Part shown: positions 3,001 through 9,000 of the stretch, piece after piece
Numbering within the stretch: position 1 is the stretch's first letter
Layout of the letters: each line of letters starts with the position of its first letter
Virus genome (UHGV): UHGV-0099111
Source of the DNA: a virus
Strand: one strand, 5' to 3'
DNA: 13,865 nt
Program-made: the position numbers

Positions 3001-6000
3001 AACGTTGATGTTGTTTGGCTTCAGCACGGCACTTCGTTAAATGGAGCGAATGATGAAGATACTCTTTCATTTGTTGGCAAATTAAAAAAAGGGTTAGTGC
3101 GCGTGGTTGGTGAGGCAATTCTTGGTGTTGATGGTGCCATCGAGATGACCGAAGAGCGCGATGGGTGGCTCAAGATTTATAGCGATGATCCAGATGCCTT
3201 TGGTCTTCGTGTGAAAGGAGACAGCATGTGGCCCAGAATAAAATCAGGAGAATATGTACTCATTGAGCCTAACACCAAAGTATTCCCGGGTGATGAGGTG
3301 TTTGTCAGAACCGTTGAAGGACACAACATGATCAAAGTTCTTGGCTATGACAGAGACGGAGAATACCAGTTTACAAGCATCAACCAGGACCATAGGCCAA
3401 TAACGTTGCCTTATCATCAAGTAGCAAAGGTGGAGTATGTGGCTGGTATTCTGAAGCAATCTCGCCATCTGGATGACATCGAGGCAAGGGAGTGGCTGAA
3501 AAGTTCGTGACTTCATCGTCACATAGCTGATAGCCAATGGCCTGAAGAGACGTTTGGGTGATAAGAGAATATCTGATAGTAGGCGTGGTTACTTTGCTCT
3601 CGGTTGTTGCGATCGTGCTTATGGTGGCCTGATGAGGTGTTTGGTTATCAGGAGTACGCATGAGGATAGGTATTGCTTTTCCGGTGATAGTGTTCATCGT
3701 GGCTGTGGCGTTTATGGCGTGGTTTGTCGTGGGTGGGTATGCGACGCCGGGTGGTTGATGAGACGTTTGGGTGAGATTGATGATGTAAGAGAGGTCGCAG
3801 AGATGCGGCCTTTTTTTTAATTGTCAAAACTCACAACCACGCACCCATGAGAATCTTTTTTTCACTCATGGCAATCATGACATTGACTCACACCACTTCT
3901 TTATGCCAGGATCATTTCAATCCAGAAAATCCTGGAAAATGATCTACTTAGGTGGAATATGCAACTTCTAACGAAAGAAAAGTTCTTTAGCTTTGTTGAG
4001 AACTACGAGCGCCTAACAGCGTCCAGTTCCAGAACAGCAGAGAATATTCAGTCGGTATGTCAACGCGTTGAGGTTTTTATACCTTCTGATTCACCTGCTG
4101 ATGCATGGGATGTACAAGGCATCGTTGATAGATATGCAGAGACCGTATCACTCAGTGAGGACAGCAAACGTTCATATAGCAGCCGCTTCAATAGCGCTGT
4201 ATCAAAGTTCATTGCTTATGAGAAAGGGGAAGATGTGAAGGCTAAGCCAAAGCCAAAGCGTCAACGTTCTGCTACAACAAAGCCTGTAGAGGAAAACTCA
4301 GTGAAGACTTTTGAATTGCCAATCCCATTGCGGGGCGATCTAATTGTCAACATTGGCAACCTACCTCGCGACCTCACAAGGGAAGAGGCAAAGCGGATCA
4401 GCAATATTATTGAGTCGTTTGCAATGTTTGACGATCTCACAAAAGAATAAAGCCCCGTTTGCAGCGGGGCTTCATAAGTGGAAGTTTTGGAAACTTCCTG
4501 AGTACAGGTTAACTGTTACCCACTAACTTAGACAATTAGAGGATAACGGTTGGCCGGGGCAAACGCAAGACTGTAAGGGATTACAGTCTGGGTTTAAATA
4601 CAGGTAAATCGTTATGATGGCACATGATGTAAATCGTGATGACTATATCTACGAACACGACAAACCGGTTTATGTGCGCAGCTACTGCCGCGTACGTTTC
4701 GGTGAACTCGAAAATGTTCGTCAGCACTTTCGTTCATATCCGAACTGCTGAGTAAGTATTGTCTAACCAGCCCGGCCTCAGCGCCGGGTTTTCTTTGCCG
4801 CACGATCCCCATCTAAAGACACATAACCAATTGTATTTATTTCAAAATTAATAGATACAACTCACTAAACATCGCAATTCAGATCTCTCGATCACCTTCC
4901 AAGCCACACCCCCCTGCAAAATATAACCCCATAAAATACAAAACGTTATAAAAAACTAATCATATTTAGAACATTTTGTATTGACTCAATAAAGTACACA
5001 TCGTACTATTTAGCCATCAGCAGGACGCACTACTCACCAGGGCGGTGAATATACAACGATTCAGAGATGAATCTACGAGGCTGAAAAGCCTAATAACCAA
5101 AGTGAACTTTGGGATGCGATGAAATGCAGCCCGTTGAGGCAAGCCGAAGATAAGCACCGGCCATTGCATCACCAAAGTTCATCAGGAGGTCACTATGACA
5201 CGCAGAACAGCTTTCAATGGCTCAGCATCAGGTCGTCGTCGTGAGCGTCGTGCAGCGCTCCAGAATGAGATTACGGCAAGCTCAGAAGTATTACACCGCC
5301 CTACTCTAAGCAGAGCGCAGATTCAGGCTAAAGGTACTCACGAAACGCCTGAGCGCATAGAAGACGCTAAGCCAATTAAGTTCATGGCACAGGACGTGAT
5401 CTGGCAACAGAAAGAATACAGACGCAATCTGGAGCGAGCGGCCATTGTGTACGCGAATGAGTTTGGACATAAGCAACCAGAAACTGGTGTATGTCTTCCA
5501 AACGTAGCCATTTACGCGGCAGGCTACCGGAAATCAAAACAACTGACGGCGAGGTGACTTGTGTTGGTCGCCAGAAGCAACGCGGAAAATCAATTCCAGC
5601 TTATTACGATTGAGGTGGTCATGCTCAAGAAAGTCAAACGCCGACTTTACAAAGAAGGTAGATATTCATGCCAGTTGCCAAAATGCGACACAACAAAATG
5701 GAGTGTCGATGATTGGTGTAACTGGATAGATAGATACGGAACTTGGTGGGATAAATAACAGGTAACTTAAGCGTATTTACTTTCGCGGCAAACCACTTAT
5801 TTGAGGTGATATATGGAAGAAGAATTTGAAGAGTTCGAAGAGCATCCGCAGGATGTGATGGAAAAATACCAGGACTATCCGTATGACTGCGACTATTGAT
5901 AAGAATCAATGGTGTGGGCAATACGAGCGGCGGCAATGATTGCCGGATGTGGCGCTTTACGCCACTGGACATCGCAGCAGAAAATCGGTTACGGCGCGTT

Positions 6001-9000
6001 AATTAACTTATGAGGTGAGGCAGTGACATACCAAGAAGCACGAAGAATTGTGGTTGCTGCGCAGGACGAGGTTGTAAGACTTAATGATCGGCTCTGCAAC
6101 ATGCATCGTCACTGGATTAAAAATGGCCTATGCGATTCAGTGGCTTCATTAATTAAGCAGCATGAAGCTGCTGTTGAAAAATGGAATGAAGCGAAGTCCG
6201 TTATGAACTCTCTTTCTCATCAGAAATAGACCCGCTCCGGCGGGTTTTTTATTGCCTGAACTAACCGAATTTATTACAGCAAGCCACGTAGTGAAATGGG
6301 GTTGACTTGTGTTGGTCGCCAGAAAATAAAATTAGGCAGCAAACCACTTATTTGAGAGCTGATACATGAGAGTAAAAACTATGGGCGCAAGCCCATTAAG
6401 CGGTCGTATTTTTCAAGGAACATTAAACACTGAAAAAGGAATGTGGGTAGGAAAGAGAGAAGATGTCACCGATCAGGCAGTTAGGGCAGTAGCCGAACAC
6501 ATGATGATAAAAGACCAGAAATATGCATACGAAACGAAGGATGGCAAATGGCTGATAATAAGTCATCAACTGGTTGATAAATTACCAGAAGAGTTTGTTG
6601 ATGGTTAAATTTGCTTTGGCATAAACAACAGAGGTGGATATGAAAGAGTTTAAGGGTACGCCTGGTAAATGGAAGTACACGGTTAGAAACGTCAACGAGA
6701 TGATGACTACGTTCCATGGTGTGACGATTGGTGACACATACATTGAAGCAGCAACAAGAAATGAAAGGGAGGATGCGCTACTGATAGCAGCAGCTCCTGA
6801 CCTTCTCGAAGCACTTCAGTTATTACTTAAGCAAACCAAAAATAGAACAACGACAACATATCCAGAATGGTATGGAGCGGTTAATAAAGGTCTCGCAGCA
6901 ATCAGAAAAGCTCTTGGGGATAAGTAATGAAAGTAAAAATAACTGCTTCTAATACCAGTTTTGTTAGTGTTGGTGATATTACAGAAGTAATAACAAACCA
7001 TGATGGAACACAAGTTATGTGGTCTGATTTTTGTAAAAGATATGAGCGAGTCACTTGGTGTAAACTCGTATGGGGAGTCGAATACGAAGAATTACCTGAA
7101 ATGCATGACGAATAAGCACTGTGTATTCATTCCAACGAGTGAATACACGGAGCAATGTCGCTCGTAACTAAACAGGAGCCGACTTGTTCTGATTATTGGA
7201 AATCTTCTTTGCCCTCCGATGTGAGGGCGATTTTTTTGATGGAGGATATATGAGTGAAGTAACAGATTTAGTTGTTATTGAAAAAGCAAATGCAATGACT
7301 GTATTTCAGTCTGCCGACCAGATTGAAGAAATCCTTCAAAAGGTTGAACGTGAAGTTATGTCCTTTGTGCCTGATATCACAACGGCAAAGGGCAGAAAGG
7401 AGATCGCTTCTCTGGCGTATAAAGTTGCGCAGACGAAAACATATCTCGATGGTCTTGGAAAAGACCTTGTTGCTGAACTGAAGGAAATTCCAAAGCTAAT
7501 TGATGCCAACCGCAAGACAGTGCGTGATCGCCTTGATGAGCTGAAATCCAAGGCACGCCAGCCTCTTACTGATTATGAGGAGGAACAGACACGGATTAAA
7601 GCCGAAGAAGAAGCTAAGGCAGCAGCTGAAGCTCTCGCAAAGCAAATTGAGTCTGACCATGAAATAGCGATTTTGATGGATCGCGAATTTGACCGCCAAA
7701 GAGAAGAGGCAAGACTCAAAGCGGAGCAGGAAAAGCGAGAGCATGAAGAACGCTTAAAAAGAGAAGCTGAAGAGAAAGCCAGATCAGAAGCCGAAGCAAA
7801 GGCAAAAGCCGAAATTGAAGCAGCAGCAAGGCGAGAAGCAGAAGCTAAGGACGCAGCGGAACGTGCAGAGCGTGAACGTATTGAAGCCGAGCAACGAGCA
7901 CAGCGCGAAGCAAAAGAGGCAGCAGAACGAGCTGAAAGAGAAAAGCAGGCGGCAATTGAAGCAGAACGCCGAAAAGCACAGGAGGAGGCTGAACGAATCC
8001 GGCGCGAGGCTGAAGCAAAAGAGCAAGCCAGAATAGCAGAAGAAAAAAGAATCAAGGAAGAAGAAGAGTGTAGAGCAAAGGATAAAGCTCACCGGAAAGA
8101 AGTAAATAACAAAATACTTGCTGACATTATCAAGGTTGGTGCATCAGAAGATGTTGCTAAAAATATCATAACAGCCATCGTAAAAGGCGAAGTATTCGCA
8201 ACAAAAATAACCTACTAATAAAACCAACATAAGGAACCACCCATGATTTACGCAATCGCGGGAGGAGCTCGCATGGGTGCCTTCCAATTAAATGAATCTT
8301 TACTTGAACGAATCACCCGTAAATTACGTGACGGATGGAAAAGAGTTGAGGTCTTATTATGCGCAATGAAATAGCCATCAATCACCAGATGCTTCGTGCA
8401 GCACAAAACAAAGCAGTAATAGCAAGATTTATTGGTGATTCCAAAATGTGGCTTGAAGCAAATAAAGCGATGAAATCAGCTATCAACATTCCGTGGTATC
8501 GCAGGAAATGAGTTTTACAGATAACTGGTCAGACGAAGAATTCATTCGTCAGATGAAAGAATTAATCGGTAACTAAGGAGATATTCATGTCACTTGCAAC
8601 CACAGTGAAGGAGAGCAAGTTACAGAGACGCATGTACACGCAGAAAGCTCTCTGGTATCGCCATAATGGTGACCGCGAAGGAATGCGGGTATGCCTTAAT
8701 TTGTCCCGAGTCGAAGTATTAAATCAGCGTTATTTCCTTGGGCCGCGTCCATTCTGAGGTGAATTATGGATTTGAATAAATTCGATGAGCCATTCAGCCC
8801 TGAAGATATTGAATGGCGAATACAGCAAAGCGGTAAAACACGCGATGGCAAAGTGTGGGCTATGGTGCTGGCTTATGTCACGAACAGGGCAATCATGAAA
8901 CGCCTGGACGATGTTTGTGGCAAAGCAGGATGGCGCAATGAATACCGCGATATTCCCAACAACGGCGGAGTTGAATGCGGCATATCAATCAAGATTGATT

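Follow-up and report, generated by a model that had tools for sequence, protein, structure and literature searches.

Why should the early-left (pL) operon of a lambdoid phage carry the same two short sequences twice, each time close to a gene start? The question is raised by the UHGV virus genome UHGV-0099111, of which one stretch of 13,865 nucleotides (hereafter the window) was analysed. A 22-mer (TGACTTGTGTTGGTCGCCAGAA) and an 18-mer (GCAAACCACTTATTTGAG) each occur there in two exact copies, and an earlier reading made from the sequence alone had taken them for intergenic modules. Both belong to the antiterminator gene N: in N genes of the lambda/21 family, codons VTCVGRQK make up the 22-mer, and codons SKPLI with the stop make up the 18-mer. 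The copies are very probably vestigial 3' ends of donor N genes, which were stacked by illegitimate joins and now act as homology patches for cassette exchange.

The repeats and the 3' end of N

The 22-mer was found at 5555-5576 and 6303-6324 and the 18-mer at 5788-5805 and 6339-6356, exactly where the sequence-only reading had placed them; at 95% identity, the 18-mer repeat lengthens to 21 nt. Two matches to either motif, with up to three mismatches, were seen in none of 200 dinucleotide-preserving shuffles of the window. The 22-mer copies are in direct orientation, 748 bp apart. As had been noted, copy 1 sits at the N stop codon: the TGA of an N gene at 5195-5557, confirmed by Pfam (PF25694, 72.8 bits), forms the first three bases of the 22-mer (5555-5557). 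Between the 22-mer and the 18-mer of copy 1 lie 211 bp (5577-5787), holding a 45-aa open reading frame (ORF) of the DUF5484 family at 5621-5758, and in copy 2 the two motifs are 14 bp apart (6325-6338), in agreement with the spacings first given (14 bp and about 210 bp). The placement of the 18-mers just upstream of a ribosome-binding site (RBS) and start codon also held. The closing GAG is part of the Shine-Dalgarno (SD) sequence, and the start codons follow 7-9 nt past each 18-mer end (ATG at 5813 and at 6366).

Taken together, 22-mer, 14-bp spacer and 18-mer form a single 54-nt sequence of 18 codons, VTCVGRQK-(M/I)KLG-SKPLI-stop. In relatives, this unit closes a longer reading frame (...YSKPRSEMG VTCVGRQK MKLG SKPLI stop), and the tail of lambda N (RGITCSGRQKIKGKSIPLI, then the stop) aligns in DNA with the unit (MGVTCVGRQKMKLGSKPLI, then the stop). 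An exact scan of viral contigs for the 22-mer gave at least 120 stretches, which together with the fetched phage loci and the window made 125 listed occurrences (loci are numbered with the prefix L below). At 61 of the 125, at least 70 open codons lay upstream in the lambda-N frame, ending at the TGA within the 18-mer. Fifty-four such ORFs of at least 95 aa were compared and fell into four classes by their arginine-rich N-terminus (lambda MDAQTRRRERR, 21-like, and two others). The lambda-type representative matched Pfam N36 with 92 bits and the third type matched N_peptide with 93 bits; two classes, including the 21-like one, reached 20-23 bits, under the cut-off of 27.9. The 21-like class is named after what we take to be the N sequence of phage 21.

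The remaining listed occurrences were non-coding: 42 directly followed a 933W-type N stop, with the frame shifted by one base, and about 20 followed an intrinsic terminator or lambda-like sequence beside sieB. Conservation stopped at the old N stop (TGA plus G), and the RBS and gene beyond differed. Copy 2 is homologous to N for another 40 nt upstream of the 22-mer, into N codons NRIYYSKPRSEMG; the search pattern did not include this part, which therefore supports an origin in N independently. The repeats are thus N 3' ends, being colinear with full-length N ORFs over their last codons and the stop. They are not purpose-made intergenic modules, being coding in about half of the occurrences and vestigial in the window.

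The same comparison bears on a promoter, which the sequence-only reading had suggested for the 22-mer because it contains TTGACT. That hexamer is present in copy 2 only; copy 1 has GTGACT. A sigma-70 promoter with TTGACT as its -35 element would drive the cassettes and, at copy 2, restart transcription after the terminator at 6228-6253. Read by eye, copy 2 does offer TTGACT, 19 nt and TAAAAT just past this terminator, and its changes from GTGACT to TTGACT and from TGAAAT to TAAAAT both raise promoter likeness. However, a consensus scan called no sigma-70-like site at either copy, and the 19-nt spacer is poor where 16-18 nt are expected. TTGACT occurred in just one of the 125 listed copies, the others having G or A before TGACTT, and half of the occurrences lie inside coding N. 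N-modified transcription from pL reads through terminators, which counts against a need for a promoter at copy 2. A promoter role is therefore very unlikely.

A structured RNA element was considered as a separate candidate and rejected. The whole window had no Rfam match, and four stretches around the repeats folded no better than their shuffles (z +0.89, -0.19, +0.32 and -1.09).

Four N stubs and the genes behind them

The window holds one functional N gene and four N stubs (R1 to R4). Each stub directly precedes the RBS of a different small gene: R1 that of DUF5484, R2 that of orf28, R4 that of ORF68 and R3 that of DUF7446. The features, with the evidence for each in brackets, are as follows.

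5195-5557, plus strand: functional N antiterminator of the 933W/H-19B type, 120 aa (Pfam PF25694, 72.8 bits; phrog_271)
5554-5613, plus strand: relic R1, a 20-codon N 3' end including 22-mer copy 1 (translation; lambda N tail alignment)
5621-5758, plus strand: ORF45 (DUF5484), the cassette gene between 22-mer and 18-mer (Pfam PF17583, 46.7 bits; phrog_1871)
5772-5804, plus strand: relic R2, a short 21-type N 3' end with an internal deletion, including 18-mer copy 1 (similarity to the short relic of lambda)
5813-5899, plus strand: orf28 homologue (MEEEFEEFEEHPQDV...), which precedes ral in lambda (phrog_16060; alignment to mEp506 and EH2086)
5883-5942, plus strand: ral pseudogene, truncated at the R4 joint, stop at 5937-5939 (alignment to the intact ral of mEp506 and EH2086)
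5943-6002, plus strand: relic R4, the last 19 codons and stop of a second 933W-family N allele (comparison with the full-length N of L155)
6023-6229, plus strand: ORF68, GTG start, function unknown (phrog_15857; 19 related viral loci)
6228-6253, plus strand: hairpin and T-run resembling an intrinsic terminator (homologous terminator ahead of the relic in L010/L036)
6263-6355, plus strand: relic R3, the last 30 codons and stop of a 21-type N, including 22-mer copy 2, spacer and 18-mer copy 2 (translation; N 3' end alignments)
6366-6608, plus strand: ORF80 (DUF7446), served by the RBS after 18-mer copy 2 (Pfam PF24233, 100.3 bits)

By megablast, the live N region shares 98.4% identity with its counterpart in 933W and related Stx phages. 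As a functional N gene, only 5195-5557 qualifies: R1 lies out of frame behind the live N stop, and R2, R4 and R3 consist of 11-31 codons, with neither a start nor an RNA-binding arm.

R1 reads VTCVGRQK QRGKSIPAYYD stop, in frame -1 with respect to the live N, with the tail of the lambda allele after the 22-mer. The same sequence is the true end of a full-length lambda-type N in L038. With the lambda frame open for about 35 codons before the 22-mer, a programmed frameshift into the relic, giving a lambda-like C-terminal extension of N, could be imagined; likewise, R3 holds ATG GGG TTG ACT ... TGA, which might encode a 19-aa peptide from the internal ATG at 6296. Neither is credible in our view. 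There is no slippery heptamer at GCG AGG TGA, the required -1 shift is disfavoured by the stop context (judged by eye), N of the 933W family is complete without a relic in L155, and no convincing SD precedes ATG 6296.

In L139 (~12455-12534), the 22-mer region behind a 933W-type N has diverged (GTAAGCTGCACCGTTCACCAGAAAATG), and the 14 bp and 18-mer after it are of the normal form; the stub behind 933W-type N thus exists in at least two sequence variants.

R2 reads CGTATTTACTTTCGCG GCAAACCACTTATTTGA, with the old N stop TGA at 5802-5804. From 5787 on (18-mer and RBS), it aligns to a short relic before orf28 in lambda, and in a comparison by eye 5772-5787 resembles codons RIYYRK of 21-type N. 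The deletion was placed, again by eye, between the repeats GCAAGCCAC and GCAAACCAC. Lambda (...CTTTACTACCGCAATCCACTATTTAAGGTGATATATG) and the P22-like SE21 have the short form in front of orf28-ral, and the undeleted version lies behind the same upstream sequence in loci of the L045/L063/L086 type.

The lambda reference itself (NC_001416, L126) carries the shortened 21-type N stub CTTTACTACCGCAATCCACTATTTAAGG at ~34358-34400, just before orf28 and sieB-distal from N. The stub of SE21 (L004, 1490-1520), also of the shortened 21 type, stands before orf28-ral as in lambda.

R4 reads PDVALYATGHRSRKSVTAR up to its stop and lies directly upstream of the ORF68 RBS. In L155, a full-length N ending in CLPDVAIYAAGHRSSKSVTAR and a stop directly precedes an ORF68 that is 100% identical to that of the window; this intact N-ORF68 pair points to a donor-type arrangement behind R4. 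A similar arrangement was found in L164/L170, with N ending in ...QKQRGKSIPAYYD and a stop, then ORF68. At the joint between ral and R4, both parents have the 7-nt microhomology TGCCAGA, which in the window reads TGCCGGA (comparison by eye). Such a microhomology is typical of illegitimate joins.

The ral pseudogene shows an internal deletion between short repeats (TGGTGTGG and GCAATACGA), leading to a frameshift and the stop at 5937-5939, and its 3' end has been swapped for R4 at ~5942.

R3 is the longest stub (NRIYYSKPRSEMGLTCVGRQKIKLGSKPLI and stop). Of its 93 nt, 84-86 agree with the 3' ends of complete N genes of the 21 type and related types, and 89 agree with the terminator-plus-relic unit in L010/L036. 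The region 6226-6400, with terminator, R3 and the start of ORF80, matched 1,177 of 5,426 complete E. coli genomes. Upstream of the terminator the genes are unrelated (ORF68 in the window, ORF114 in L010/L036), so the terminator itself is a mosaic joint. These results also decide against a local tandem duplication of about 750 bp as the source of the two copies. Direct orientation, the 748-bp distance and exact identity over 22 and 18 nt would fit a duplication. However, identity ends at the motif edges, the spacers are 211 bp and 14 bp, and the flank of copy 1 consists of 933W-type N codons, while copy 2 follows 21-type N codons and a terminator within the region shared with the 1,177 E. coli genomes. 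As each copy came with a different flanking N lineage, duplication was rejected, and we hold it to be almost certainly wrong.

Compared with its E. coli counterpart in L010/L036, the terminator at 6228-6253 shows a compensatory stem pair (CCCGC/GCGGG against CCCAC/GTGGG), and the T-run and the next 25 nt are the same. In L010, L036, L055 and L069, the stretch from ~750 to 40 nt before the 22-mer holds a 21-type N with a different C-terminus (..NRSIYYKDSNPLGNKIHAVQKI..), a 114-aa ORF, a terminator and an old 31-codon N tail. The changed C-terminus followed by this block indicates that the block was joined into N at the NRIYY codons.

Across all relics, the first codons vary (NRIYY, LYY, VTC, G/SKPLI, PDVA), which argues for illegitimate joins and against recombination at a fixed site.

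N lies in a lambdoid immunity/pL region, where it comes after a CI-like repressor (2803-3510), a terminator-like site (4769-4790) and a promoter-like site (4981-5009). A 163-aa ORF at 3959-4450 (phrog_2602) occupies the rex position between repressor and pL, before the terminator at 4769-4790, and is a candidate for an exclusion or defence gene expressed from the prophage; its sole PADLOC match was sub-threshold (Avs1b, E = 0.004). Farther downstream, a 340-aa ORF at 7196-8218 (TTG start as listed) matched phrog_1376 and phrog_21365 and nothing in Pfam, NCBIfam or PADLOC. Since the listed start is overlapped by a terminator-like hairpin (7209-7230), translation probably begins farther downstream. 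The neighbouring unknown ORFs gave only sub-threshold noise in defence and NCBIfam scans.

Re-assorted flanks and probable cassette exchange at the stubs

The boundary sequence is present in 933W, HK106, Stx2_EH2086, mEp506 and more than 150 viral contigs. In 933W, HK106 and Stx2_EH2086 it forms one uninterrupted unit of N stop/22-mer, 14 bp, 18-mer and RBS, followed by a different gene in each. A cross-table of the listed occurrences gave five classes of left context against about nine downstream gene families, with the joint sequence unchanged; the identical joint between 933W-type N and the 22-mer was paired with seven different first genes. The DUF5484 gene was found as a cassette between 22-mer and 18-mer in L038, L069, L103 and L127-L149. 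It stood behind three left contexts (lambda-type N, 933W-type N, and terminator plus relic), and at least six different genes came after it. The 18-mer closes at least four cassettes: the mEp506 type, ORF114 with its terminator, the L134 type, and ORF68 with its terminator.

A search for the motifs across related phages, which the sequence-only reading had proposed, thus showed that they flank variable gene cassettes. The sequence-only interpretation stands in part. DUF5484 is a discrete cassette, the flanks are re-assorted, and the uninterrupted unit exists in 933W, HK106 and Stx2_EH2086, so that a boundary reused for cassette exchange is a fair description; the sequences are not dedicated intergenic modules, and the two copies are not a local duplication. 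Given identical joints with re-assorted flanks, homologous exchange within the shared patch would be the best explanation. The stubs mark cassette exchange and probably also mediate it.

The same short sequences bound cassettes in many phages, as would be expected if a dedicated cassette system, of integron type or with some other site specificity, recognised them to insert and excise genes. The details do not fit. Joints differ in position along the N tail, half of the occurrences are plain coding DNA, neither an inverted repeat nor a hairpin is present at the motifs, and none of the window ORFs scanned (2803-8218) matched a recombinase family. We regard such a system as highly improbable.

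A further reading gives the relics a function, namely that selection kept them as portable translation-initiation leaders. The last N codons and stop (CUUAUUUGAGGUGA) would supply an SD, an A/U-rich upstream region or translational coupling. All copies of the 18-mer end within ~14 nt of a start codon, with the final GAG in the SD in every context, and the shortened relics in lambda, in P22-like SE21 and after the ORF68 terminator retain exactly the last-codon part. On the other hand, the relics are 33-93 nt long, far beyond what an SD needs; R4 has a different tail, with its SD after the N stop; DUF7446 does without a relic in SE21; and no structure or other signal was found. On this reading, only joins preserving the last-codon stretch would survive. 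Selection for a leader is doubtful as the reason why the relics persist; that the stretch serves the next gene as a leader is plausible and compatible with vestigial N ends, to which it would add a function.

For the preferred reading, that of vestigial N ends reused as homology patches, the sequences themselves show what the stubs are, where they come from and lie, and that their flanks re-assort; the N 3' part is the one that phages with differing RNA-binding arms have in common. From this we infer the following order of events, recombination pathways and neutrality of the stubs. Genes that were first behind N in different donors may have been stacked one after another behind the live 933W-type N. 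The joins would have been illegitimate and would have fallen inside the donor N, upstream of the RBS of the captured gene, in an N copy that was by now redundant. Each captured gene would keep an N stub as its leader. The stubs would have no dedicated function and, being common to many phages, could offer short homology patches. At these, general or phage recombinases (Red, Erf, RecA) might recombine the immunity/N side with a different accessory-gene side, and might also move cassettes such as DUF5484 in and out. As shared homology patches, the stubs would then mark mosaic boundaries.

The window is an unusually stacked example of this common process. It was alone, among the 124 listed loci with an exact 22-mer, in having two copies of either motif. 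At a coverage of at least 80%, the region 5150-6700 was found in none of 50,697 phage records and none of 5,426 complete E. coli genomes. The joint of ORF68, terminator and relic was absent from an exact scan of 185,579 species genomes, and in the 5,426 E. coli genomes megablast gave no match to ORF68 upstream of window position 6226; its relatives come from other viral contigs (19 related loci).

Mosaicism is strong over the whole window: Escherichia phage N7, the best phage record, covered 43% of it in 7 pieces, and more pieces are shared with Sf6, Stx1a phages and Salmonella P22-like phages.

Several points weigh against this account. The loci were ascertained through an exact match to the motifs themselves, and the IMG/VR prophage contigs are redundant, so that the counts are not independent events. 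R2 measures only 33 nt, and its assignment draws on the short form in lambda and P22 and, for the upstream half, on a comparison by eye. All relic classes are intact in frame, which may hint at selection or at frequent conversion from coding copies and not at neutrality. Finally, what suggests exchange by homologous recombination is the pattern of re-assortment.

In a bolder form of the account, the first position behind N would be a natural cassette array that needs no integrase, in which the stub serves both as translation leader and as universal homology arm and is kept by selection or by continual conversion from coding N. We consider this unlikely. If it were true, single-strand-annealing recombinases would add, drop and swap genes among lambda/21/933W-type phages at patches of 18-54 nt.

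With vestigial N ends as the explanation, an odd pair of repeats becomes a readable history, in which four N stubs of at least three allele types show the units of accessory-gene stacking. For one class of the boundary sequences conserved in lambdoid early-left operons this gives a traceable origin, and the reference phage lambda, too, carries a shortened stub before orf28-ral. Annotators should not label such N-tail stretches as promoters or small genes, and the stubs are possible markers of module exchange in Stx and other lambdoid prophages. The current understanding of phage mosaicism is unchanged.

Comparison with known systems

The feature is of a known kind, the short conserved boundary sequences of lambdoid early-left operons, a concept that reportedly builds on the homologous-linker idea of Susskind and Botstein from 1978. 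Such sequences were proposed as recombination foci by Clark, Inwood, Cloutier and Dhillon (2001, J Mol Biol 311:657), as cited in PMC3029335 and PMC2327257. Like them, the sequences of the window are conserved across otherwise different phages, lie at pL cassette joints beside an RBS, and have flanks that re-assort on both sides. They differ in that they can be traced to the 3' coding end of N and are coding in about half of the cases, and in having variable left ends, a sign of illegitimate joins. A literature search returned general statements on boundary sequences and on N mosaicism, and none saying that boundary sequences are N-gene tails; Clark et al. (2001) lay outside that search.

Among N proteins, those of lambda, 21 and 933W/H-19B (Pfam PF11438 N36, PF25694 N_peptide) are the closest. 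The repeats are colinear with their last 18-31 codons, with DNA identity of up to 92%. In contrast to these genes, the window copies are fragments lacking a start and an RNA-binding arm; they stand apart from the live N or in another frame and cannot make N. N genes are mosaic, the N-terminal arm varying and the C-terminal part being shared, as PMC2629481 notes for gene 43 of epsilon34.

For exchange at the patches, lambda Red is a plausible enzyme activity, acting on short or diverged sequences that flank mosaic blocks. Martinsohn et al. (2008, PMC2327257) showed experimentally that Red exchanges diverged sequences, using engineered diverged genes. The patches of the window, at 18-54 nt, are shorter than the 100-nt "shoulders" scored there, and the window case is known from sequence alone.

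The layout also recalls integron cassettes (attC): small genes lacking promoters follow one another behind a single strong promoter, and a related short sequence bounds each of them. The likeness is one of layout only. Among the ORFs scanned between 2803 and 8218 the window has no integrase match, and it has neither an imperfect inverted repeat of the attC type nor a fixed crossover point.

The competing model for lambdoid mosaicism is illegitimate recombination plus selection, put forward by the Hendrix group and cited in PMC3029335 and PMC2327257. Its joints and morons (Hendrix/Juhala model, cited in PMC3029335) resemble the window in that joints fall near gene boundaries and small genes are added singly, some with their own terminator (ORF68; ORF114 in L010/L036), in one case with a microhomology. 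A terminator does follow ORF68; a simple scan showed no promoter-like site before ORF45, orf28, ORF68 or ORF80. As classical morons have a promoter and a terminator of their own, the added genes may not belong to that kind, and the joints lie inside a duplicated gene end and not exactly between genes. The window fits both models, in that illegitimate joins would create the stubs and homologous exchange would reuse them.

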